From Eledone cirrhosa (lineage: Eukaryota), in the NCBI GenBank assembly GCA_964016885.1, contig OZ024757.1:21638001-21702000 (forward strand): a stretch of DNA of 64,000 nt, written 5' to 3'. Below the pieces are notes generated by a model that saw only the letters and a list, made by a program, of their open reading frames with translations, did no database searches and was not told the DNA's origin. Position 1 is the stretch's first letter. Each line of letters begins with the position of its first letter. Of the stretch, positions 2,311 through 61,361 are shown piece after piece. The position numbers and the translations under genes are program-made.

Positions 2311-3217
2311 TCCATTCCATTTTATTTAAAAGACTTTATGGCTTCCTTGGTAAAGATTGGTTGAATTGCCAGGGAAGTAGATATATACAAGACATATACT
2401 GTATGATTGATTGATTTGTTAGGATTTGACCAGTTTGAAACTAGTAAGACCATTATTTAGCAGAGTACTTAATACTTGGAAAAGTAGAGTGTAAATATAA
2501 CAGAGAGTTAGGATCTGATAGCCGGGCTGTTGCCATTTGAGACAGCAAATTCCAAACTATCAAACAATATCAAGATAGCAAAGAGTCAAAATGCCTTCAA
2601 CGTTTAAGCAGGTAACAGGATTCAAGTTTTATGCAGAAGAAATTTATATAAAAAGAAACATGCAAGGTTACAAGTTTACCTGCGTTTGTTTCAAAAACAT
2701 TTGTTAGATTGCTGTAAAGAGTTGAAACAAATACTGCTAATCTACTGATGAAACATGTACACCAAATTAATACTCTCAATCAAATTAAGGTGATGTCCCT
2801 CCTTCTAGATCAATAATTATCTGTTCAATATCTGTTCTGATGCAGTTCATCTAAAACCAGTTTTAGACACAGTTTACAGACACCTTATGTCTTCAAGATA
2901 TTCAATATATTTGAAGAATTTTGTGGCTTCTTGGTGGAGATTGGTTTAGTTGAATTGGTAGAGGAATTAGATATATTTAGAACATATACCGTATAATATA
3001 AAGATATATACACACACACACACATATATATATACACAGATATATATATACATATATATATGAAAAGTGTAAGTTTCTACACAAAACGAAGGTTATAGAG
3101 AAAATTGAGGTTGGTAATGGCACATGGAATATATAAGAGACAGAATACTTTTTTGTGAAAAAACATATAATTATATATATATACACATACATATGCATAC
3201 ACTCACAAATATATACA

Positions 3218-3296
<79 letters not shown>

Positions 3297-3349
3297 TAGA
3301 CACTACCTTGCTCACAAATGTCTATTTTAATTTTCATATCATGTCTCCC

Positions 3350-3420
3350 TATTTTATCTGATGAGAACGCAAATATCGTCCCTGGATGATATTTGTTTTT
3401 GAAATGCGCATAACAAAATA
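3350..3420 (+). ncRNA. Minimal type I hammerhead ribozyme (Penelope-like)
   Basis: tattttat CTGATGA gaacgcaaatatcgtc-cctg-gatgatatttgttttt GAAA tgcgca TA acaaaata; all three helices pair, helix III palindromic. Confidence 0.8.
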
Positions 3421-3452
3421 CATGGAACTTTTTTAACCATCTTTTAATTTCT

Positions 3453-3536
<84 letters not shown>

Positions 3537-10493: not shown

Positions 10494-11349
10494 AGAGGGT
10501 GACCAGTTTTAAACTAGTAAGACCATTATTCAGTGTATAGTACTCAATACTTGGGATAATAGAATGTAACTATATCAAAGAGAGAGAGAGTCAAGGCATG
10601 GCAGCTGAGCTCTTGTCAATGTGGGTGGCAGGCAGATGAAATGTAGAAAAGATTGAAAGAGGAAGACGACAAGAAGTGTGTTGGTGCACAGAAGTGACTG
10701 GAAGAAGGAAATGAAGAAAGGAGATGTACAAGACAAGTTTACACCCATATATCCTCATCATCATCAGCTTCCGAACCAGCAAAATGGTTTTGCAATATTT
10801 AATTGAGTGTACCATTTAAAATGCTAGATCATGCAACAGGAAAATAAATCTTTCTGCTGGTATAATGTAGTGTGTGATAATACAAACACTACAAATAGAA
10901 GGACAAAAGAAAACAAAGAAAAGGAAAATTCTGGCGTTCTGTGTCTTTTGTTTGTATTTTTATTTTCAAAAAATAATTTTTTAAGGTTTCCCATTCAAAA
11001 AATTGTTTTTCATTTTGTCTTGTTTCCATTCATAGTCTTGTTTTCTATTTGTTAATTTTTCTACACACAGAGACACATATATCTATTAATTTCAACAATG
11101 TCAGTATTCTGTGTGTCATAATTCCCTATTATCATTGGTTCATAGGTTTCAAACGACTCTGCCCACCTCAACGATGCCAAACTTAAATTAATATGCATAA
11201 TGCCAATGAGGCAGTGACGGAGGAGAGTAAGAAAGGCAAAGTGAATGCTGTAACTATTACCATGTGTGCGTGTGTATGTACGTGTGCTTATGTTTATGTG
11301 TGTGTGTGCATGCGTGCAGTGTTCCACAGAAAGTAAAAGCAATTCAACT

Positions 11350-12637: not shown

Positions 12638-13342
12638 GTTAAGGTATCATAACATGTATGAGGATTATGTTTCTCAATAGAATATACATATACACACATG
12701 ATGGGCTTCTGTAGTTTCTGCCAACCAAAATCCACTCATAGGTCATTTATCAAGCTGAAGCTATTGTACTTTGTCAAAAGACCCCTGTCTAAGGTGTCAA
12801 CTGGTCACTCTGAACCCAGAGAACAACATGGTTGTCAAGCAAACTCCTTCACCACACAGCCATGACTGAGCCCCATTAATAAAATCAAGCTGTATCATCA
12901 TCAAATATATAGATACGGAATTACTGAAGTAAAATGTTGATTTGAAGCAGATTGCTTCTGGTTGAACATAGAGAGGAGTGGCACGTGTGAAGTTAATCCC
13001 ATGGAAGTAAGATTGAGAGAAATAGATGAGGAAAAACTAAAGAAAGATATATATATATATATATATGAGGAAAAACTAAAGAAAGATATATATATATATA
13101 TATATAAGGTAATTATAAGATATGTGTAAGATAATTAGAAAATAATGTTTTCTAAATCAGGAGAATGGAAACCTTATATAAATGGAGGAACTTCACTGAT
13201 AATGAGTAAATACTGGGAGGGAGAGAGCGAGAGAGGAAGAGAGTAAGGAAGGAAGTGATGAAGGAAGGAAGAGAGAAAGGAAGGAAGAGAGAAAGAAAGT
13301 ATCTATGTATTATTTTATGAATCTTTACCAATAGAGGAGGAG

Positions 13343-13582
13343 TTAACCCTTTAGCATTCACATTACTCTATATATACTATTGTATTTTCATGGTAAAGGC
13401 TTTACCTCACATAATATCTCACATAACATTCACATTACTCTATATATACTATTGTATTTTCATGGTAAAGTCTTTACCTCACATAATATCTCACATAACA
13501 TTCACATTACTCTATATATACTATTGTATTTTCATGGTAAAGGCTTTACCTCACATAATATCTCACATAACATTCACATTAC
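13343..13582. mobile_element. piggyBac-type MITE end with 3x 72-bp internal repeat
   Basis: ttaaccctttagcattcacattactc start; 72-bp period. Confidence 0.7.
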
Positions 13583-14199
13583 ATCATGGCACCAGGATTA
13601 GGGAGTTTGTCATATCTTTAACACATCTGGTAATATCTCCCAATCCTCTGTTTGGAAAGTTTTCTATGAGTGGTTGTCCTTCCTATAACCAATCACTTTA
13701 CAGAGTGTACTGGGTGTATTTTATCATTCCACCAGCACTAGGGAGGTTGTCATGTCTTTAAGACGACTGAAAAGATCTCCCAACCTTTTGTTTTGTCAAT
13801 CCCTGTTTTGAATAATTTGGTCTCTAACCCTCCATAGGTCTGTGTCATATTTATTAACCCTTTAGCATTTAAACCAGCTGTATCTGGCCAGGATTCTCTC
13901 ACCTCTTTCTATTCAAACCGGCTACAACTAGCCACTCACACTGATGTTAAGGTATTGTTCTCAAAATAAATAATAACAAAATTTCAAAGATTCAATATTT
14001 TGTGAGATAATAATGTGAGGTAAAGCCTTTACTGTAAAAATATAATAGGAAATATAGAGTAATGTAAATGGTAAAACTAAGGACAAAATGTGATAAAAAC
14101 TGTACAATATAAATGGTAATAAGAAAACAAAAAAGAAAGAGATGGTAAAATGAAGAAGAAGAAATTAAGCAATGAAAGAAAGGGAAAGGGGGAGTGAGC

Positions 14200-20720: not shown

Positions 20721-21020
20721 CATATATATACATATATATATATATACATATATATACATATGTATACATATATATACAGATATACATATATATATATACA
20801 TATATATATACATATACATATATATATATATACATATTCATATACATATTCATATACATACACATATATATATATATACATATTCAAATAAGTATATTAC
20901 AGAGCTGAAATACTTTATATATATATATATATAAGACCAAAAGACGGTTAAAAGAGTTCCAAGAATTTTATTATGCGCATTTCAAAAACAAATATCATCA
21001 TGTATCATATCATGTATCCC

Positions 21021-21091
21021 TATTTTATCTGATGGAAACGCAGATATCATCCCATGATGATATTTGTTTTTGAAATGCACATAATAAAATA
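21021..21091 (+). ncRNA. Hammerhead ribozyme, same family as 3350 (core variant CTGATGG)
   Basis: tattttat ctgatgg aaacgcagatatcatc-ccat-gatgatatttgttttt GAAA tgcaca TA ataaaata; inverted half copy at 20933-21002. Confidence 0.65.
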
Positions 21092-21315
21092 CTTGGAACT
21101 CTTTTAACCATCTTTTGATCTTATATTATTTATACTCCAGTCCTACAAACTGTAGAGTGCTACTTATCCGATATTTGCTTTGCTTTATTGTGCTACAATA
21201 AAACTCACCTCCTACACACACATATATATATATATAGTATTTCAGCTCTTAATATACTTGTTATTTTACATTGAGCTATTCTCATACTTGTAATTGGTTA
21301 ATATTTAATATTACC

Positions 21316-22298: not shown

Positions 22299-22897
22299 GT
22301 TGATGTGTAATGTTTAGTTACTGCTGATTCACCAGCTGGAGCACTCAATGCTAATATGTAGGTCCAGCTACCGATGTGGGATTCCACATTTGGTACTTCA
22401 CCATTATCGGTATCCTTAAGAAGTGGAGTGCTAATAATAATAACAATAATGATTGGCACAATACTTTTGGCACAAGGCCAGCAATTACCCAGTGCATTAC
22501 TGGTACTTTATTTTATCGACCCCGTAAGGATGAAAGGCAAAGTTAACCTCGACGGGATTTGAACTCAGGCCGTAAAGGGACGTAACTCTATGCTTCAAAG
22601 CATGGCGTCGTCCCGACCCTCTACCGATACTGTTAATCCACCGCCTAATAATAATAATAATAATAATTGTTTCTACTTTTGACACAAGGCCAGCAGTAAT
22701 AATGATAATAATAATAATGGATTCTGATTTAGGCACAAGGCCAGCAATTTAGGAGGGGGGGGGGGGGGCGTCTGCTTCTTAAGGATACCGATACTGGTGA
22801 AATACCAAATGTGGAATCCCACATCAGTAGCTGGACATACATATTAGCATTGTACAAACTAGTGAGCCATCGGTAACTAAACATTACACATCAATAC
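22299..22897. mobile_element. Element with ~130-bp inverted repeats enclosing SINE copies (MITE or fold-back)
   Basis: 22299-22425 is reverse-complementary to 22775-22897; MetaSINE-like copy at 22462-22645 inside. Confidence 0.65.
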
Positions 22898-23745: not shown

Positions 23746-24254
23746 ACTACACACATGCTATTGTATGGAACCATCTGAGCATTTTATGTGACACAGTGTA
23801 CATATGTTCTGTTCAGGCAACATGTAAATAATTCCTTTTTGTGAAATATTTGTCAAACTTATAGAAATATAGCTTGGAGAAAATGTGTTACATATCTGCA
23901 GGAGCTAATACTAAATGAGGCATATCTCCTGGAATATTTCAATCTCTAGTTAATAACATGGTCCATTATTCTATACTGGGTCTCCCGCCTGTCAAACAGG
24001 AAATATCTTTAAATAATTAATTGAATTACAGATTAGCAGACTGTTTTAATTTTTCATTTTTGCTTCCTCGTCATTTGGGAAACTCTCAACATCCTGTAAT
24101 GATTTGGCAGAAAATATCTATAAACAGGTTTGTGATTTCAAATGTTTGTAGTAACTTTATTAGGGGACAGATTATCATCAAAATTTGCAGAATTAACTCT
24201 CATCATCTTGTAATGATTTAGCAGAAATATCTTTAAACAGGTCTGTAGTGGTAA

Positions 24255-25171
24255 GAAATTCTGAGGAGAGCTAGACAACAGAAGGTTTTCAAAGAAGAAA
24301 TTCTAATGAGTGTTGGGCAGCAGAAGGTTTTCAAAGAAGAAGTTCTGAGGAGAGCTGGACAGTAGAAGGTTTTCAAAGAAGTTCTGAGGAGTGCTGGACA
24401 GTAGAAGGCTTTCAAAGAAGAAATTCTGAGGTGTGTTGGACAGCAGAAGGTTTTCAAAGAAGAAGTTCTGAGGAGAGCTGGACAGTAGAAGGTTTTCAAA
24501 GAAGTTCTGAGGAGTGCTGGACAGTAGAAGGCTTTCAAACAAGAAATTATGAGGAGTGCTGGACAGCAGAAGGTTTTCAAAGAAGAAATTCTGAGGGGTG
24601 CTGGACAACAGAAGGTTTTCAAAGAAGAAATTCTGAAGAGAGTTGGACAGCAGAAGGTTTTCAAAGAAGAAATTCTGAGGAGTGCTGGACAGCAGAAGGT
24701 TTTCAAAGAAGTTCTGAGGAGTGCTGGACAGTAGAAGGTTTTCAAACAAAAAATTCTGAGGAGTGCTGGACAGCAGAAGGTTTTCAAAGAAGAAATTCTG
24801 AGGAGTGCTGGACAGCAGAAGGTTTTCAAAGAAGAAATTCTGAGGAGTGCTGGAGAGCAGAAGGTTTTCAAAGAAGAAATTCTGAGGAGTGCTGGACAGC
24901 AGAAGGTTTTCAAAGAAGTTCTGAGGATTGTTGGACAGCAGAAGGTTTTCAAAGAAGAAATTCTGAAGAGAGCTGGACAGCAGAATGTTTTCAAAGAAGT
25001 TCTGAGGATTGCTGGACAGCAGAAGGTTTTCAAAAAAGAAATTCTGAAGAGAGCTGGACAGCAGAAGGTTTTCAAAGAAGAAATTCTGAGGAATGCTGGA
25101 CAGCAGAAGGTTTTCAAAGAAGAAATTCTGAAGAGAGCTGGAGAGCAGAAGGTTTTCAAAGAAGAAATTCT
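24255..25171. repeat. 42/39-bp minisatellite, about 22 copies
   Basis: Unit ttctgaggagtgctggacagcagaaggttttcaaagaagaaa. Confidence 0.95.
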
Positions 25172-25507
25172 CAACAATCGTTGATGCATTTCGAACAGGA
25201 CAATCCCTCCCGTTCTTGCAACTGCTGGACTTTGAAAACAGTCGAGAATATATAGTTTTCTCGTCTGTGTAAATGAGGCGATTAATCTCATTTGCATATG
25301 AAGTTGTATAAGTTGGTTCAAATTATAATAGAATAGAATTAGAATTTAGCTTCGAGTATAGCTGTATATAGATATGTATTAAAATTTCATATTTCTAAAG
25401 AAACACGGTATGTTGATAAATAAATAAACATTTGGAAAACTGTAGCTATGCAAAAACATTGGCAGTTATCGCCACCTGGGGGGTGTCCAGCAGAAGCAAG
25501 GGGGACA

Positions 25508-25551
25508 ATCAGCGATGCATTTCAAACTAAACTCGTTCTCATCAGGGCGAT
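25508..25551 (-). ncRNA. Very small (44-nt) type I hammerhead ribozyme
   Basis: Minus strand atcgcc CTGATGA gaac-gagttta-gttt GAAA tgca TC gctgat; palindromic helix III. Confidence 0.7.
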
Positions 25552-25735
25552 ACCTCCCACTCTTGCAACTGCTGGACTTTGAAAACAGGTGAGAATATGT
25601 AGTTTTCTCGTCTGTGCAAATGAGGTGATTCCAATACATATTTATATACAGCTATGCTCGAAGCTAAATTCTAATTCTATAGTAAATGGCATAATTTTAG
25701 GGGAGAGGAGGCAAGTTAATGTGTATCCGATAGAT

Positions 25736-26259: not shown

Positions 26260-26471
26260 TTCTGTGTGTGTATATATATATATATATTTCTGTTGGATTT
26301 GTGGAGAGCTATGCATAACATAAGAATGTAAATAACAACAACTGGTTGTTGTTGTTGTTGTTGATGTTGATGTTGATGTTGTTGTTGTTTACCTTCGAAT
26401 CAACTGTGCTTAGCCTCAGCTCAGTCCTGATCCAGCCATGACCATCCACTCTCATATATATATATATATAT

Positions 26472-26650
26472 ATAACGAAGGAAATATGGTAAGGAGCCAG
26501 GTGGACCATAACGCACCAAAGTACTCAATACTTAGAATAGTAGAGTGGGTAATAGGAACGAGTAGGACCCCGACGGCTGAGCTCAAGCCGTTTCGACGGC
26601 TAATTCTGGACGGCTTGAGCTCAGCCGTCGGGGTCCTACTCGTTCCTATA
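26472..26650 (-). mobile_element. (TA)n-inserted element carrying 3' half of a hammerhead, with fold-back arm
   Basis: Minus strand gccgtc GAAA cggct-tgagctc-agccg TC gggg; inverted arm ends at ttccta(ta)n. Confidence 0.7.
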
Positions 26651-26763
26651 TATATATATATATATAAATGAAGTATTTCCGTCGGAAAAGTACAGGAAAA
26701 AAGAGTGCTCTATGTAGGCTACAGAGCTTATTAGTTATGTAATAAACAACATAAGATAATTAT

Positions 26764-26824
26764 TTCATTTATCTGTGGTTTCTTGAAGATAGATGTTGTA
26801 TCTATCTTTAGTTGTCAGAATGAA
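26764..26824 (-). ncRNA. Degenerate hammerhead ribozyme (core CTGACAA)
   Basis: ttcatt CTGACAA cta-aagatagat-acaac-atctatctt-caa GAAA ccacaga TA aatgaa; 6-bp helix I, 9-bp helix II. Confidence 0.5.
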
Positions 26825-26870
26825 TAAAAAACATGGTGTTAAATAAATATATAAATATATATATATATAT

Positions 26871-27081
26871 ATAACGAAGGAATTGTGGTAAGGGACCAGA
26901 TGGACCATAACGCACCAGAGTACTCAATACTTAGGGTAGTAGAGTGGGTAGTAGGAAAAGGTATGACCCCGACGGCTAGAGCTCAAGCCGTTTCGACGGC
27001 TATTTCTGGACTAGAAATAGCAGTCCAGAAATAGCCGTCGAAACGGCTTGAGCTCTGCCGTCGAGTCATACTTTTTCCTAT
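26871..27081 (-). mobile_element. Second copy of half-hammerhead fold-back element
   Basis: Homologous to 26472-26650; helix II gctatttct-agtcc-agaaatagc visible at the fold-back point. Confidence 0.7.
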
Positions 27082-27993
27082 ATATATATATATATTTATT
27101 AAAATAACAGATTAAAGTTTAAGCAAAGAATCGCTGCTCTCACCCTTAACGGGATCTTCTGAAACTAACAAAAATATATATATATATATATGAATAAAGT
27201 GGTCCTTCGTCAGTGATCTTCCAACCATCACAGGTATTTCTTCGCTTTAAAGACCACCATATATATATATAAGACACGTCCCACCCTTGCAAGCAGGGAA
27301 AAGCGGACGTAAAATGATGATGATGATGATGATATATATATATAGTGAAGGCCTGTGGCTGAGTGGTTAGAGAATTGGGTTTGCAATCGTGAGGTTGTGA
27401 GTTTGATTCCGGACCGGGCGATGCGTTACGTCCTTGAGCAAGACACTTTATTTCACGTTGCTCCTTCTACCTGGAGTTGCGACCGATAGATAGTATTAGC
27501 AATTGGAAAGACCAACGGAAACATTGTTTCCTCGGTCCGATTTGACGAAAGTCAATCGTTTATATATCTATATTTATAACCAGCATTCCATTATTCCCAT
27601 CTTCTGTGGTTCTGTGATTCTGTAATTCTGTTTGACCAATGTTTTATTGTAACACCCCCTCCCCCCCTCTACCTACATCTGGTGATGATATAGTCTGGGA
27701 TGTATAAGGTGGGGAGGGGGGGGAGATCACTGACTGTGGAGGAGGGGGGTAATTGGGGAGGGGGAAAGAGTGGAGGACTGACAGTGGAGAGTGAGGAAGA
27801 TGGATAGGAGGGAGTGGGGCTGAAGGAAGAGTAGGGAACAGACAAATGAGGGGGTAATTGGGGAGGGGTAGAGTAGAGGACTGACAGAGGAGAGTGAGGA
27901 AGATGGATAGGAAGGAGAGGGGCTGAAGGAAGAGAAGGGAACAGACAAATGAGGGAGAGGGAGAGAGATAGAGGGAGAGATAGGTAGGTAGAG

Positions 27994-31295: not shown

Positions 31296-31380
31296 GAAAT
31301 ATATACTGAGTTAGAAACTCAAAATAGTCTCTTACAATTAAATAGCTCTAAGAAAAAAGCTTTTCCGAGCCGTGTAATAT

Positions 31381-31569
31381 AATTGAATATACAATAGAGA
31401 TGAACACTAATATATATATACATGTGTCCGAATTGTAAGGGACCACCTTTGCTAGGGTGAAAAATACTAACTATTGCTGTAGTTTGTATTGTTTCACCCT
31501 AGCAAACCTGGTCCTTTACAATTCGGACACATCTATGTTTATATGAGTGTTTATCTCTCTTGTATATTC

Positions 31570-31573
<4 letters not shown>
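31381..31573. mobile_element. Hairpin MITE-like element
   Basis: tgtgtccgaattgtaagggacca...ttgctagggtgaaa / tttcaccctagcaaa...tggtcctttacaattcggacaca with inverted flanks. Confidence 0.65.
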
Positions 31574-31631
<58 letters not shown>

Positions 31632-31676
31632 AAGTTAAATAAAAAGTCAAATGTTTAAAATTTAGCTTCGTTTATT

Positions 31677-31731
31677 ACTGCTATATATATTTCAGTGACA
31701 GCCATCTTTGGCTATGACCTCTTCAGGCAGT
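31677..31731 (-). ncRNA. Type I hammerhead ribozyme (left arm of inverted duplication)
   Basis: Reverse complement of 31922-31976 with one substitution. Confidence 0.8.
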
Positions 31732-31921
31732 TTGAATTAGTGTGGTATAGACAAGTATATATGTTGTTGAGGTGTATAATTTTGTCAATACTCTGATATG
31801 CCCGGTTCCTGGTTGGGTTGTTATTTCACTGAGAACCCAACCAGGAACTGGGCATATCAGAGTATTGACAAAATTATGCACCTCAACAACATATGTACTT
31901 GTCTATACCACACTAATTCAA

Positions 31922-31976
31922 ACTGCCTGAAGAGGTCACAGCCAAAGATGGCTGTCACTGAAATATATATAGCAGT
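31922..31976 (+). ncRNA. Type I hammerhead ribozyme
   Basis: actgc CTGAAGA ggtcacagcca-aaga-tggctgtcact GAAA tatata TA gcagt. Confidence 0.85.
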
Positions 31977-32125
31977 AATAAACGAAGCTAAATTTTAAAC
32001 ATTTGACTTTTTATTTAACTTTATTTTACATTACTCCGGAGTAACCAAACCAACCTGCGCACTTCGTCGAGTGCTCCAGCCTGCATACTGAGGTGTTGGT
32101 ATACAACCAACATATACTCAAAATC

Positions 32126-32159
<34 letters not shown>

Positions 32160-32924
32160 ATATGTGTGTGTGTGTTAGGAAGGGCATCCAGCCATAGAAA
32201 ACCTGCCAGACAGTCCTATGCGAGCAAAACAACCACTCTTGCCTCAAGTGGGAAAACTCCCGTCCAAACCCATGCAAGCGGGGAATATGGACGTTAAACG
32301 ATGATGATGACGATGATGATGATATATATATATGTGTATGTGTGTGTGTGTGTTATATATATAAATATGTATGTGTGTGTTTATATATATATATCTATGT
32401 GTGTGTTTATATATATATATGTGTGTGTGGTGTGTGCATTTATTATTATATGTATGTGTGTGTGTTTTTATATATATATATATGTGTGTGTAAGTTTATA
32501 TATTTATATATATGTGAGTTTATATATATATATATATATATGTGTGGGTCTGTGTGTTTATATATATATATATATATGTATGTATGTGTCTGTGTGCATA
32601 TATGTGTGTGTGTGAGTGAGTGTGAGTGGTGGGAGCAGTGGTGGGGATGGGTGGAGAGGAGTTAGGGGTGATGGAGAAGAGAATGATAACAAAATGGAAG
32701 AGGGATGTTGATAATGAACACCCCCTCCCCCCCCATATATATATACACACACACGCACACATATACACACATCATCATCATCATTTTACATCCGCTTTTC
32801 CCTGGACCATAACGCACCAGAGTACTTGATACTATGGGTAGTAGAGTGATATATATATATATATATATACATATATATACATACATACATACATACATAC
32901 ATACATAGATACATACATACACTT

Positions 32925-33371
32925 CGGAAAACAAAATTAACAACAAACGAGGAAGAATATATTGAGACAGATGGCACTAAGGAATACTGGTGTAACCTGA
33001 AAATAAAAACTGCCACCAAATTAAAGCACAACCGGCCTGATATTGTTGTTTGGGACCACACATTGTAAACGTGCTCTGTTGTGAAGATCAGCTGCCCACT
33101 TGATGTAAACGTTGTCAGAAAAATACAGGAGAGGGAGGACATCTACGGACCATTGATGAGGAGTTTACAAATCCAGTATCCAAGATACACATTTAGCTTC
33201 ATACCCATCATTATTGGAGCTACGGGTTATATACCAACCCGCTTGGACCAAAGTATGACTGAACTTGGATTTGCGGACAAAGAGCGCAGCTCCCTAATTC
33301 ATAGTCTACAAATGGCTGCGATAGCTGGCACCTTCAAAATTTGCAAAACATTCTTGCGATTCAAGGGATGA
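32925..33371 (+). pseudogene. R4/Dong-like non-LTR retrotransposon, RLE domain fragment
   Basis: KHNRPDIVVW, ISCPLD, IPIIIGATG motifs; in-frame stop. Confidence 0.75.
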
Positions 33372-36128: not shown

Positions 36129-36850
36129 TTAACCCTTTAATGTTCAAACCGGCCAGAATTCTCTACCTCTTTCTGTTGAAACTGGCTGTAACTGGTCACT
36201 CAAACTGATGTTAAGGTATTGTTCTCAAAATAAATACTTTCAAAATCTGATAGATTCGATATTATGTGAGATAATTATGTGAGGTAAAGCCTTTACCATG
36301 AAAATATAATAGTATATATAGAGTAATGTGAATGGTATGTGAGATAATTATGTGAGGTAAAGCCTTTACCATGAAAATATAATAGTATATATAGAGTAAT
36401 GTAAATGTTATGTGAGGTATTATGTGAGGTAAAGCCTTTACCATGAAAATATAATAGTATATATAGAGTAATGTAAATGTTATGTGAGGTATTATGTGAG
36501 GTAAAGCCTTTACCATCAAAATATAATAGTATATATAGAGTAATGTAAATGTTATGTGAAATATTATGTGAGGTAAAGCCTTTACCATCAAAATATAATA
36601 GTATATATAGAGTAATGTAAATGTTATGTGAAATATTATGTGAGGTAAAGCGTTTACCATCAAAATATAATAGTAGATATAGAGTAATGTAAATGTTATG
36701 TGAGGTATTATGTGAGGTAAAGCCTTTACCATGAAAATATAATAGTATATATAGAGTAATGTGAATGTTATGCGAGATATTATGTGAAGTAAAGCCCTTA
36801 CTGAGAAAATACAATAGTATATATAGAGTAATGTGAATGCTAAAGGGTTA
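36129..36850. mobile_element. piggyBac-type MITE with ~8x 72-bp internal array
   Basis: TTAACCC...GGGTTAA termini; opposite orientation to the 34392 copy. Confidence 0.75.
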
Positions 36851-44537: not shown

Positions 44538-44822
44538 TCAAGTCTTCAAATTATTCCTATGAATTATAAAATAACTGTTTCTACTTTTGGCACAAGGCCA
44601 GCAATTACCCAGTACATTACTGGTACTTTATTTTATCGACCCCGTAAGGATGAAAGGTAAAGTTAACCTCGGCGGGATTTGAACTCACTGAGGTTAACTT
44701 TACCTTTCATCCTTACGGGGTCGATAAAATAAAGTACCAGTAATGTACTGGGTAATTGCTGGCCTTGTGCCAAAAGTAGAAACAATTATTTTATAATTCA
44801 TAGGAATAATTTGAAGACTTGA
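44538..44822. repeat. ~133-bp near-perfect inverted duplication of a SINE 3' half plus flank
   Basis: Arms 44538-44670 and 44690-44822, 19-nt spacer. Confidence 0.9.
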
Positions 44823-45349
44823 AGTCTTCAAATTATTCCTATGAATTCTAAAACAATGTCTGTTATTCCTTTAGTTACCATACTTCTAATGAATTATTCC
44901 ATTGAAGAATTTGGAAGGATTTACTGAGATTATATTTTTTGTTTAAGTGATATTTGTAAAATAATATTACAAAAGGTAAAAATAAAAGCTGCAAAGTTCT
45001 AACTTAAACAGAAATGTCCTGTACCTCATGAAACCATATTAGCAACACATTCCTGAAAAGTACAAACCAGTACTATGACTACATCACATTAAAAAGGTAA
45101 AGTCTTTACGTTAAAACAGCAAATTTTCATAACAATCTGACAACTAGTAAAGATACTCTAAATATTTGAATTAACAAACCTGCTTCTAAATATTCTAGAT
45201 ATCTACCAAATCATTACAAGACGTTAACAGTTAAATAGGAATATTTGATAGGAGTATTGAATAACAATAATAAAATAGCAAAACAAGAAAAGAAAAGAAA
45301 GGAAAATGGGGGAAGGGCAAGGATTGTTAAGCAACAAAGAAAGGGGAGA

Positions 45350-49654: not shown

Positions 49655-49717
49655 TATTTTATCTGATGAGGGCGTACCAAAGTTTTGGTACCCTTGAAAT
49701 ATATATATAATAGAATA
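49655..49717 (+). ncRNA. Type I hammerhead ribozyme
   Basis: tattttat CTGATGA gggcgtaccaaa-gt-tttggtaccctt GAAA tatatata TA atagaata. Confidence 0.8.
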
Positions 49718-49891: not shown

Positions 49892-49925
<34 letters not shown>

Positions 49926-49927
<2 letters not shown>

Positions 49928-50119
49928 GGAACCAGTAAGACCCCGACGGCTGAGCTCAAGCCGTTTCGACGGCTAATTCTGGACTGAATTAGCCGTCGAA
50001 ACGGCTTGAGCTCAGCCGTCGGGGTCTTACTGGTTCCTATTACCCACTCTACTACCCCAAGTATTGAGTACTTTGGTGCGCTATGGTCCACCTGGTTCCT
50101 TACCACATTTCCTTCGTTA
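49926..50119 (+). mobile_element. Third copy of half-hammerhead fold-back element
   Basis: Perfect palindrome centred on gacggctaattc-tggact-gaattagccgtc, then GAAA cggcttgagctcagccg TC gggg and a tail to ccttcgt(ta)n. Confidence 0.75.
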
Positions 50120-50806
50120 TATATATATATATATATATATATTGAGTATAACATGTTATCCATGTGCAACCAGCAGTATTCTTCTCACCCATATTTTCAT
50201 ATATTTACCCAAACTGCAATTCTGTGTTTCTCTCTTTCTCTCTACTGACCTCTTCCTCGCACTCCCACTCACTCAGTCCCTGTTTCTCCCCTTCTTTCTT
50301 CCTCCCGTTCGCTGGGAAAACGGTTTTCATTCTTTCTAACACCGGATTCACTAGCGAAAGGTCTGTTTTCTGACTCGCTCATATATTCACACAGCTTATG
50401 CTGAAAGAATAACTATGTTGCTTGTGTTTATTTCCATCTTCGGTTAGCTTCCCCCTGTGTTGTTTACTTGTCTCACTCGCTTTACGCGTTTCTATTGTCC
50501 TAATAACTTATTTTAGTTATTATCACTCCAATGTGAGGTATATGATTTTTAATGCGATGAAATACCCATGATCGTTTGGTAAATCACTGATGAGGGACTC
50601 ATTTTATAACATGTTATCCATGTGCAACCAGCAGTATTCTTCTCACCCATATTTTCATATATTGAGTATATGTTGGTTGTTTACCGATACCTCAGTATGC
50701 AGATTGAAGCACTCGACGAAGTACGCAGGTTGGTTTGGTTACTCCGGAGTAATGTAAAATAAGTAAGTCAAACATGTAAAATTTGGCTTCGTCTATTATA
50801 AATTCT

Positions 50807-50859
50807 CTGCTATATACATTTCGGTGACAGCTATTAATGGCTGTGACCTCTTCAGGCAG
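50807..50859 (-). ncRNA. Type I hammerhead ribozyme
   Basis: Minus strand ctgc CTGAAGA ggtcacagcca-ttaa-tagctgtcacc GAAA tgtata TA gcag. Confidence 0.8.
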
Positions 50860-51126
50860 TCCGAATTAATGTGGAAAGGACAGGTAAACATGTTGTTGAA
50901 GTGTGTTCCACTCTGTCAATACATCGATATGTCCAGCTCCTGGGTGTGTAGTTAGTCCTCCGAGGAACTGGAATCAATATGATTCTGGAATATTGAACTG
51001 GAATCATATTGATTTCAGTTCCTCGGAGGACTAACTACACACCCAGGAGCTGGACATATCGATGTATTGACAGAGTGCAACACATTTCAACAACATGTTT
51101 ACCTGTCCTTTCCACATTAATTTGTA

Positions 51127-51179
51127 CTGCCTGAAGAGGTCACAGCCAATACTAGCAGTCACTGAAATATATATAGCAG
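51127..51179 (+). ncRNA. Type I hammerhead ribozyme (right arm)
   Basis: ctgc CTGAAGA ggtcacagc...gcagtcact GAAA tatata TA gcag. Confidence 0.75.
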
Positions 51180-51230
51180 AGAATTTATAATAAACGAAGC
51201 CAAATTTTATATGTTTGACTTACTTATTTT

Positions 51231-51276
<46 letters not shown>

Positions 51277-57337: not shown

Positions 57338-58209
57338 CCCATGACTGTTTTAGAGAAATACCAAATCAAACCCAGTACATGATCAGTACTTTATTTTAGG
57401 GACTTTGTAATAAAATGAAAGGTCAATGCGACCTCAGTGAGATTTGATCCCAAAATGTAAGGAACTGTAATTAAATATCACAATACATTTAATCAGATGC
57501 TCTACCAATTCCACCAGTCCACATATTTTGTAGTGATATTAATTTCAAATTTAGGCACAAGCCCAGCAATTTTTTTGGTAAAGAAAGGCAAAGAGTTGAT
57601 TAAACCTCACCAGTGTATGACTGGTAATTTATTTTATCAACTCCAGAAGAATGTCATGTAGGACACAGTTGAAAGATACCACTCTGACCAGGGTGTACAG
57701 TCTGTCAATACCCCCCCCCCCCCCCGCTTCCCTTCCATTGTTGTTTAATTTTCTTCTTTCACTTTAATTAGTATTGAAATGACACGACCCTCCCCCACAA
57801 CCACAGGACCCTCCCTCCCAACAATAACACGACCCCCTTCCCAATAATACACAACCCCCCCCTCCATTATGACCCCCCCTAACACGACGGCCCCCCCCCC
57901 TCCCAACAATGACACAATTAGACACAGTTGAACATTTAAATGAAAGTAAGAACTTACAACTGACACAAATAAATGCTGTAGACTTTCTATGTAAATATTG
58001 TACTGGGTAGGAGATAGGGTAAGGAGAGAAGGACACGGGGGGGGGGGGGGGGAAGGAAGAAGGTAAAGAAGAGAAGGAAAGGAAGGAAGAGAGGGAGGGA
58101 GGAAGATAGACAGGAAGGTATGGTAATGAGGGCTCAGTGAAAGCTTGTTTATTAGTTTACAATGATAAGCTAATAAAAGCTGATATCACAGATATTACCA
58201 GTTGCTACA

Positions 58210-59604
58210 TTAACCCTTTAGCATTCACATTACTCTATATATACTATTATAGTTTCACAGTAAAGGCTTTACCTCACATAACATTCACATTACTCTATAT
58301 ATACTATTGTAGTTTCACAGTAAAGGCTTTACCTCACATAATATCTCACATTACATTCACATTACTCTATATATACTATTGTAGTTTCACAGTAAAGGCT
58401 TTACCTCACATAATATCTCACATAACATTCACATTGCTCTATATATACTATTGTATTTTCACAGTAAAGGCTTTACCTCACATAATATCTCACATTACAT
58501 TCACATTACTCTATATATACTATTGTAGTTTCACAGTAAAGGCTTTACTTCACATAATATCTCACATTACATTCACATTACTCTATATATACTATTGTAG
58601 TTTCACAGTAAAGGCTTTACCTCACATAATATCTCACATTACATTCACATTACTCTATATATACTATTATATTTTCATGGTAAAGGCTTTACCTCACATA
58701 ATATCTCACATTACATTCACATTACTCTAAATATACTATTGTAGTTTCACAGTAAAGGCTTTACCTCACATAATATCTCACATAACATTTACATTACTCT
58801 ATATATACTATTGTATTTTCACAGTAAAGGCTTTACCTCACATAATATCTCACATTACATTCACATTACTCTATATATACTATTGTAGTTTCACAGTAAA
58901 GGCTTTACCTCACATAATATCTCACATAACATTCACATTGCTCTATATATACTATTGTATTTTCACAGTAAAGGCTTTACCTCACATAAGTATCTCACAT
59001 AACATTCACATTACTCTATATATACTATTGTAGTTTCACAGTAAAGGCTTTACCTCACATAATATCTCACATTACATTCACATTACTCTATATATACTAT
59101 TGTAGTTTCACAGTAAAGGCTTTACCTCACATAATATTTCACATACCATTCACATTACTCTATATATACTATTGTAGTTTCACAGTAAAGGCTTTACCTC
59201 ACATAATATCTCACATAACATTCACATTACTCTATATATACTATTGTAGTTTCACAGTAAAGGCTTTACCTCACATAATATCTCACATTACATTCACATT
59301 ACTCTATATATACTATTGTAGTTTCACAGTAAAGGCTTTACCTCACATAATATCTCACATAACATTCACATTACTCCATATATACTATTGTAGTTTCACA
59401 GTAAAGGCTTTACCTCACTCTATATATACTATTGTAGTTTCACAGTAAAGGCTTTACCTCACATAATATCGTTTCTATGAGATGTTGAGAACTATACCTT
59501 TATGTCAGTATGAGTGGTCAACTGGCCAATACATGGCTGGATTGAGCAGAAAGAGGTGAGAGAATTCTGGCCGGATACAGCCGGTTTAAATGCTAAAGGG
59601 TTAA
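58210..59604. mobile_element. piggyBac-type MITE with ~17x 72-bp internal array
   Basis: TTAACCCTTTAGCATT...AATGCTAAAGGGTTAA termini. Confidence 0.8.
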
Positions 59605-61017: not shown

Positions 61018-61361
61018 CATCATCATCATCATCATTTCATTTTGCGTCCGCGTTTCCCTGCTTGCAAGGGTGAGACGGGAACTGATTCTGGCTTGATTTC
61101 TACAGTTGGATGCCCTTCCTAACACCAACCTCATTTACAGTGAGTGCTGGGTGCTTTTTTTTTCCGTGGCACCTCCACGACCACTTTGCAGTGGAATGAT
61201 AGGGACCCCAGTCCTATCATATCATTTCTACAGCTGAGTGAAGTGGAGCAATGTGAAATAAAGTGTCTTGCTCAAGGAAACAACACATCACCCGGTATGA
61301 GAATTGAACTCACAACCTTTTGATTGCAAGGCCAATGCTCTAACCACTAAGCCATGTGCCT
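61018..61361 (-). mobile_element. tRNA-derived SINE with RTE-type tail
   Basis: Family homology. Confidence 0.85.

Follow-up and report, generated by a model that had tools for sequence, protein, structure and literature searches.

The window, a 64,000-nt stretch of Eledone cirrhosa DNA that was analyzed at its full length, is rich in microsatellites and harbors three head-to-head inverted copies (c1, c2, and c3) of a repeat family whose unit is ~140 nt long (Table 1). Positions in the family are given in c2 numbering. The arms of c1 (26552-26591 and 26610-26649, 40 nt, spacer of 18) and those of c3 (49925-49979 and 49986-50040, 55 nt, spacer of 6) are 100% complementary, and c2 has a perfect 35-nt core (26978-27012 and 27022-27056, spacer of 9) that continues imperfectly out to 26952 and 27080. 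The three inverted copies that had been claimed from the letters alone are thus indeed palindromes. All six outer ends adjoin (TA)n. In each of the three copies, the short arm terminates at TTCCTA against (TA)n (26952 in c2), just as the earlier reading had it, and the long arm runs ~79 nt beyond this point, up to (TA)n. The DNA flanking the palindromes differs between the two sides.

Over the 39 nt that c1 and c3 share, there are no differences between the arms inside either copy and two between the copies, while the arms of c2 differ from one another at ~3-4 positions. The claim that the arms share copy-specific variants is borne out in c1 and c3. The associated claim that the inversion was made separately at each insertion is supported, the arms being derived from one template per insertion.

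Table 1. Parts of the three inverted copies and related sequences in the window
Feature	Position	Strand	Description
c1 long arm	26474..26611	-	putative sense strand; 5' boundary, half-hammerhead-like motif, ~79-nt tail to (TA)n
c1 short arm	26610..26648	+	starts in helix III, TTCCTA end at (TA)n; 2-nt junction overlap with long arm
c2 long arm	26873..27021	-	includes 9 nt (27013-27021) complementary to 26999-27007
c2 tail	26873..26951	-	long-arm-only segment between fixed outer ends 26873 and 26952
c2 3' half-hammerhead-like motif	26970..26995	-	C-GAAA, 6-bp helix III, GAGCTC palindrome in loop, GUC
5' boundary, fixed family-wide	27006..27017	.	common to inverted and non-inverted copies
c2 short arm	27022..27080	+	starts at 5' boundary, TTCCTA end at (TA)n; junction without microhomology
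c3 short (tail-less) arm	49926..49985	-	holds 6-nt loop
c3 long arm	49986..50118	+	tail-bearing, terminates at (TA)n
Tail-only family fragment	32803..32848	-	5' end at (TA)n; 3' side adjoins unrelated repeat end
Old diverged non-inverted relative	2430..2558	-	homology ends at family 5' boundary; GAAA lost
Old diverged relative	10500..10612	-	clear tail similarity; core similarity not significant

The three copies are joined at different points. In c2 coordinates, the junction of c1 is 27011/~26991, with a 2-nt overlap; that of c2 is 27021/27012, with no overlap between the arms; and that of c3 is 27006/27012, a tail-less arm reaching 27012 with its loop and a tail-bearing arm starting from 27006. 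The proposal that all three copies fold back alike inside helix II of a hammerhead ribozyme is consequently not borne out, the short arm of c1 starting in helix III. A native 5' strand of helix II can be made out in no more than one copy, c2 (9 nt), where it is possibly itself a templated insertion; in c3, such a strand is indistinguishable from the inverted arm. The long arm of c2 ends in a 9-bp hairpin (-7.4 kcal/mol as DNA). In both c1 and c2, the short arm is contained in the long arm, a rule that fails in c3; despite being a subset, the second arm of c1 and c2 stops ~79 nt short of the end of the first. Snap-back of a cDNA on helix II, as the sequence-only reading had proposed, is thus compatible with c1 (2-nt microhomology) and c2 (9-nt hairpin), which taken alone fit it, but not readily with the non-subset arms of c3.

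The same reading took each copy for the 3' half of a hammerhead. The parts of such a half are present on the outward-reading strand, namely C-GAAA, helix III, and a UH cleavage triplet (GUC), but no CUGANGA box was found and Rfam finds no hammerhead. Dinucleotide shuffling reproduces the C-GAAA-helix III-GUC pattern, which was chosen after the fact, 27 and 29 times in 5000 (~0.5%), and the half-motif is oriented outward, like the seven complete type I motifs in neighboring families. Upstream, as in type I, CUGANGA was found in none of the three window copies and neither of the two old relatives; downstream of the cleavage site, as in type II, it was found on neither strand within the three copies. 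A copy with CTGANGA intact, which it had been suggested to look for and the lack of which had been named as refuting the proposal, appeared neither among the window copies nor among 24 of the 508 rows of loose read ends described below, and those 24 rows held no conserved upstream consensus. No hammerhead reached the Rfam gathering score anywhere in the window, and none was among the 16 matches that the stretch 26440-27110 gave at E<=10. The sole match at gathering score was a tRNA at 61297-61354, and neither a tRNA nor any other Rfam match of that strength falls on the family element; weaker matches are to generic hairpins or microsatellites.

In the MFE folds of c1 and c3, GAAA is buried in a competing hairpin. 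A common subfamily (1521 and 1643 reads) has lost a helix III pair without compensation, and no compensatory helix III change occurs among the listed read variants. The old relative at 2506-2558 lacks the GAAA. The AGCCGTC module occurs more than once and has two pairing partners. The 6-bp helix III of the family is longer than the extremely short stem III described for hammerheads of Penelope-like elements (PLEs) (PMC6765202). We regard a hammerhead ancestry, with a putative helix II, as no more than plausible, and the half-hammerhead as it stands would not cleave in cis. HDV-like, twister, tRNA-box, 5S, and Helitron readings of the element, judged by eye against consensus features only, did not fit.

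Sequencing data were aligned to the c2 long arm (26872-27021, 150 nt) at a threshold of 80% likeness, in four of 23 runs. X1 consists of contigs, possibly from the window's own sample; X21 and X22 are raw RAD reads from another study with the same species label; and X6 consists of contigs from another species, which align over 26882-26981 only and are hence uninformative on the 5' boundary. The family is very abundant, with matches in 15,647 X1 contigs, 18,165 of 12.47M X21 reads, 19,451 of 12.79M X22 reads, and 327 X6 contigs. Loose ends consisting of (TA)n stand before 26952 in 860 (X21) and 977 (X22) reads, and before 26884 in 1114 and 1474 reads, respectively. Both outer ends, ~26873-26884 and 26952, are common to the whole family.

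At the other end of the unit, depth falls steeply over 27007-27016. At 27017-27021, it is 3.5% (X21) and 4.1% (X22) of its value at 27007-27011, and in X1, it is 1.1% of the value at 27002-27006; the reference has only 9 bases past 27012, and reads extending beyond 27021 lie outside the display. Behind 27013, 829 and 663 reads have AT-rich loose ends of heterogeneous sequence (agreement of 0.45 and 0.46), which indicates that many copies stop there without inversion or conserved upstream sequence. Since these non-inverted copies and the old relative at 2430..2558 stop at the same point, the 5' boundary needs no fold-back. The alignment score of that relative is equalled by two of 2000 shuffles, and the core score of the relative at 10500..10612 by 665 of 2000. 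Many RAD reads seem to end at an AATT cut at 27002-27005, to judge from the depth step and the loose-end consensus, so that RAD data beyond it represent only some variants. There is no pile-up of DNA-copy ends at the GUC site (26971/26970) in the reads. Two X21 reads with a joint 27010->26978 consist of a copy ending at the 5' boundary, a short TA run, and then another short arm that is oriented like the first copy, which reads as a tandem insertion at that boundary.

Joints between family segments were counted from 15 of 34 joints, 11 of which are opposite-strand. Four "skip" joints were left out of the junction count, and joint 26872->26979 was excluded because its 26979 side coincides with a private insertion of c2, where alignments clip. 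Opposite-strand joints are present in three of the four runs. One side lies at 27006-27017 in 10 of the 11 listed, and the partner sides of those 10 (26914, 26934, 26942, 26945, 26957, 26958, 26959, 26970, 26974, and 27006, with 0-5 shared letters) are scattered over about 90 nt (26914-27006). Half of these partner ends (5/10) are no more than 10 nt away from 26952 (binomial P 0.02-0.04, in a small and filtered sample). The placement of junctions at helix II is therefore borne out for one side, which falls near the putative helix II loop in those 10 of 11 joints, but not for the scattered partner side.

The c3-type joint, 27006->27012, occurs in 12 X1 contigs, 18 X21 reads, and 15 X22 reads. 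Confirmation of the palindromes in independent reads, as had been proposed, is thus at hand for the c3 type: the raw reads of both samples from the separate study contain this joint, which therefore did not arise during assembly. Neither the c1 nor the c2 junction is among the 15 of 34 joints listed. In joints 26958->27006 and 26959->27011, the shorter sides (55 and 60 letters) reach exactly 26952, as taken from the summary column rather than from the reads, and tail-bearing and tail-less arms probably overlap by only 7-8 nt, neither being a subset of the other. No letters are shared at these low-overlap joints. Amplification by PCR probably disfavors perfect palindromes, and the low-overlap joints would be overrepresented as a result.

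Inverted insertions are common across the window. Two of them, at 31625-32126 and 50673-51233, belong to a family in which each arm carries a complete type I hammerhead motif and the short arm adjoins (TA)n; the tail measures ~98 nt, and the centers lie ~90-125 nt upstream of the ribozyme box and not in helix II. In the copy at 31625-32028, which served as a control, a 14-nt spacer aligns with the sequence of its own family when read on the tail-less arm. The neighboring intact type I hammerhead families have the same outward orientation and one-sided tail. A third hammerhead family, at 20929-21126 (relative at 3334-3465), is also inverted; one arm holds the whole motif with a variant core, and the other ends in the helix II loop, the single case that fits a helix II hotspot. 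Solo complete minimal type I hammerhead motifs are found in AT-rich DNA at 49663 and 53741, and further short-spacer inverted repeats of other families at 22346-22852, 25333-25680, and 31377-31577.

At 44540-44847, a dispersed repeat with no hammerhead, which has more than 10 further copies in the window and which we take to resemble a tRNA-type SINE, is arranged head to head. A 26-bp direct repeat is followed by two arms with one mismatch over 105 nt; the direct repeat then comes first inverted and afterwards in its original orientation. This is a clean inverted duplication of the snap-back type, in which the 26-bp target duplication has itself been copied in inverted form. The window also contains long minisatellite arrays at 24211-25213 and 58126-59506 (39/42-nt and 72-nt units), the 72-nt family having further copies at 13271-13714 and 36274-36842. 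Beside the tail-only family fragment, across a microsatellite, lies a 100-aa open frame (33069-33371, + strand) with no Pfam match, which presumably resembles the C-terminal restriction-like endonuclease region of LINEs.

The architecture of the family makes it likely to be the short, non-autonomous end of a PLE. It shows a head-to-head inverted 5' copy in all three window copies, a one-sided tail, and a (TA)n target, features that are described as standard for PLE insertions, in which the (TA)n preference is a bias (PMC8557442; PMC8969392). Two fixed outer ends flanked by (TA)n, together with a one-sided tail, are described as PLE-specific (PMC11167929; PMC8557442), and a PLE-type context of the palindromes is supported. 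Of the 158 complexity-filtered ORFs of the window, 106 were scanned against Pfam, and none of these matched an RT or GIY-YIG domain. Six short family motifs are absent from the supplement text of PMC8557442, and a pattern scan with two family motifs gave no matches in viral contigs and none in genome contigs. Two motif matches in metagenomes were rejected as chance, their flanks being unrelated and GC-rich.

As in the accounts of endonuclease-positive PLEs (Penelope/Poseidon, Neptune, Nematis, and Naiad), the inverted copy is head to head with a palindromic junction, the tail is at one end, the (TA)n target shows no visible duplication, and a hammerhead-like motif lies near the 3' end. In contrast to these elements, the family has no ORF, and its 5' end is fixed where theirs is variably truncated (PMC8557442; PMC3846280). 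It also has half a hammerhead with a 6-bp helix III, and its ~79-nt tail exceeds the 30-40 bp described for them, although the control family in the window has ~98 nt. Non-autonomous PLE derivatives such as MRC1 are known (PMC8557442; bioRxiv 10.64898/2026.07.22.740005), and the family shares with MRC1 and the non-LTR retrozymes a short, non-coding, high-copy, PLE-end-related character. Retrozymes, however, are described as tandem repeats with complete type I hammerheads (PMC7229834), whereas the family copies are solo or inverted and hold no complete ribozyme; a tandem hammerhead-bearing arrangement was absent from the window copies, which are inverted or solo.

Two systems described in the literature bear on how the palindromes may form. 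The protein of PAc, a Poseidon element of Anolis, cleaves both target strands in vitro and extends both; the tail lies between its two RT start sites, and hammerhead cleavage is dispensable (PMC11167929). The family likewise shows no pile-up of ends at the GUC site, and two putative start sites bound its tail. The results text of PMC11167929 gives no account of how inverted copies form. In the twin or dual priming of L1, two nicks prime two cDNAs that are joined in inverted orientation with little or no microhomology, the second primer acting at variable internal sites and the fragments usually not overlapping (PMC2837659). The family differs in that both starts are fixed and overlap ranges from none to nearly complete. 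Annealing of small hairpins to themselves is documented at L1 breaks (bioRxiv 10.1101/2024.12.14.628481). Our literature search, which took in few of the subscription journals, found no paper that applies twin priming to PLEs.

On balance, we lean toward the view that the family is a non-autonomous PLE end and that its palindromes arose from separate cDNAs, primed by both strands of (TA)n and joined head to head. A PLE protein with RT and GIY-YIG activities, supplied in trans, would nick both strands of (TA)n. The tail end would serve as the start of one cDNA and the internal TTCCTA site as that of the other, whether on a single RNA or on sister RNAs, and each would run toward the fixed 5' end of the RNA, after which the two cDNA 3' ends would be joined with 0-5 nt of microhomology. 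Full overlap of the cDNAs would give a palindrome, a first cDNA that stopped near the second start site would give an L1-like inversion, and a single cDNA would give a solo copy. A local hairpin may aid the final annealing or yield short templated inserts but would not be required. We infer the enzyme, the RNA, and the joining step; what is observed are the palindromes, the outer ends ~79 nt apart, the fixed inner boundary, the scattered partner ends, and the non-subset arms.

The arms discriminate between joining of two cDNAs and self-priming by one. In c3, in the control copy 31625-32028, and probably in two read joints, each arm has sequence that the other lacks, so that these structures cannot be made by simple snap-back; in c3 and the control copy, it is the tail-less arm that reaches further 5'. 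The clustering of partner ends near 26952 is as expected if the first cDNA stalls at the second priming site. Twin or dual priming is thus the simplest account, and it matches the in vitro findings on PLEs (PMC11167929). It is possible that later asymmetric deletion at the palindrome centers mimicked non-subset arms, or that a hairpin intermediate was trimmed by an endonuclease.

Snap-back would have a single cDNA prime itself on the helix II hairpin, with one arm later trimmed at TTCCTA by an endonuclease and the junctions varied by later deletions. Both halves of this scheme have precedents: palindromes at the inverted junction of PLEs were already read as self-priming in 2013 (PMC3846280), so that the mechanism offered by the sequence-only reading for inverted PLE 5' ends is not new, and endonuclease resolution of the tail has been proposed (PMC8557442). 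The short arms of c1 and c2 are subsets of their long arms, the long arm of c2 terminates in the 9-bp DNA hairpin, one arm of the other hammerhead family (20929-21002) ends in the helix II loop, and 27006->27012 is the joint with the most X1 contigs and recurs in X21 and X22. We nevertheless consider this scheme unlikely. The spacer sits on the tail-less arm in c3 and in control 31625, the low-overlap joints share no letters, and the boundary is common to non-inverted copies too. Only ~1-4% of depth passes 5-9 nt beyond the loop, and a native 5' strand of helix II is thus rare if it occurs at all; the clear snap-back case at 44540-44847 runs through into target DNA, unlike the family; and the internal stop of the short arm, which the (TA)n ends before 26952 show to be family-wide, is left unexplained. 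The fixed 5' boundary and the non-subset arms together favor two-cDNA joining over helix II snap-back.

Another possibility is that the masters themselves are palindromic, in which case the 5' boundary would be set by the loop of a long hairpin formed in read-through RNA from inverted copies, "helix II" would be the center of an ancestral palindrome, and reverse transcription past the loop would supply the complementarity for joining. The boundary does lie at the hairpin apex and not at its 3' base, the repeated AGCCGTC module has two pairing partners, and the same joint, 27006->27012, recurs in 12 contigs and two RAD runs. This appears quite improbable to us, as the old non-inverted relative stops at the same boundary and the three window copies have three different junctions. 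Improbable to much the same degree, or slightly more so, is that the unit derives from neither a hammerhead nor a PLE; it would instead be a short element, SINE-like or otherwise, that has a structured 5' head and is mobilized by a different retroelement, its GAAA and GUC being coincidental. The absence of CUGANGA, the helix III pair lost in a subfamily with no compensatory change among the listed variants, the loss of GAAA in an old relative, and the presence in the window of a different repeat that is a head-to-head palindrome without a hammerhead all point that way. The half-motif, though, is met in only ~0.5% of shuffles and faces outward like those of the neighboring hammerhead families, the literature treats a pair of fixed, (TA)n-flanked outer ends plus a one-sided tail as specific to PLEs (PMC11167929; PMC8557442), and Rfam at gathering score places neither a tRNA nor anything else on the element. 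As for fold-back chimeras of assembly or library, the identity of arms within a copy is what chimeras would give, and the c1 and c2 junctions are missing from the 15 of 34 joints listed; but each palindrome has different flanks left and right, divergence is seen between the arms of c2, and inversion joints, the c3 type among them, occur both in the raw reads of X21 and X22, which stem from a separate study, and in the X1 contigs, which makes such an origin scarcely credible.

The two-cDNA reading can be taken a step further, in a form that we put forward as doubtful. The family would then be a SINE-like element with a fixed 5' end, mobilized by Penelope and amplified to a very high copy number after loss of half the hammerhead. 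Its inverted repeats and tails would result from twin priming at two fixed RT start sites, in place of self-priming, and hairpin transcripts would reset the 5' end at each round.

The architecture described here is ordinary for PLEs, to which the proposed two-cDNA mechanism adds a testable element. The origin of the inverted repeats and tails of PLEs is named as an open question in PMC8557442, and the family, which is short, young, and present in thousands of copies whose outer ends and 5' boundary are fixed, is a good natural data set with which to approach it. Which of the two arms reaches further separates self-priming from twin priming by sequence alone.
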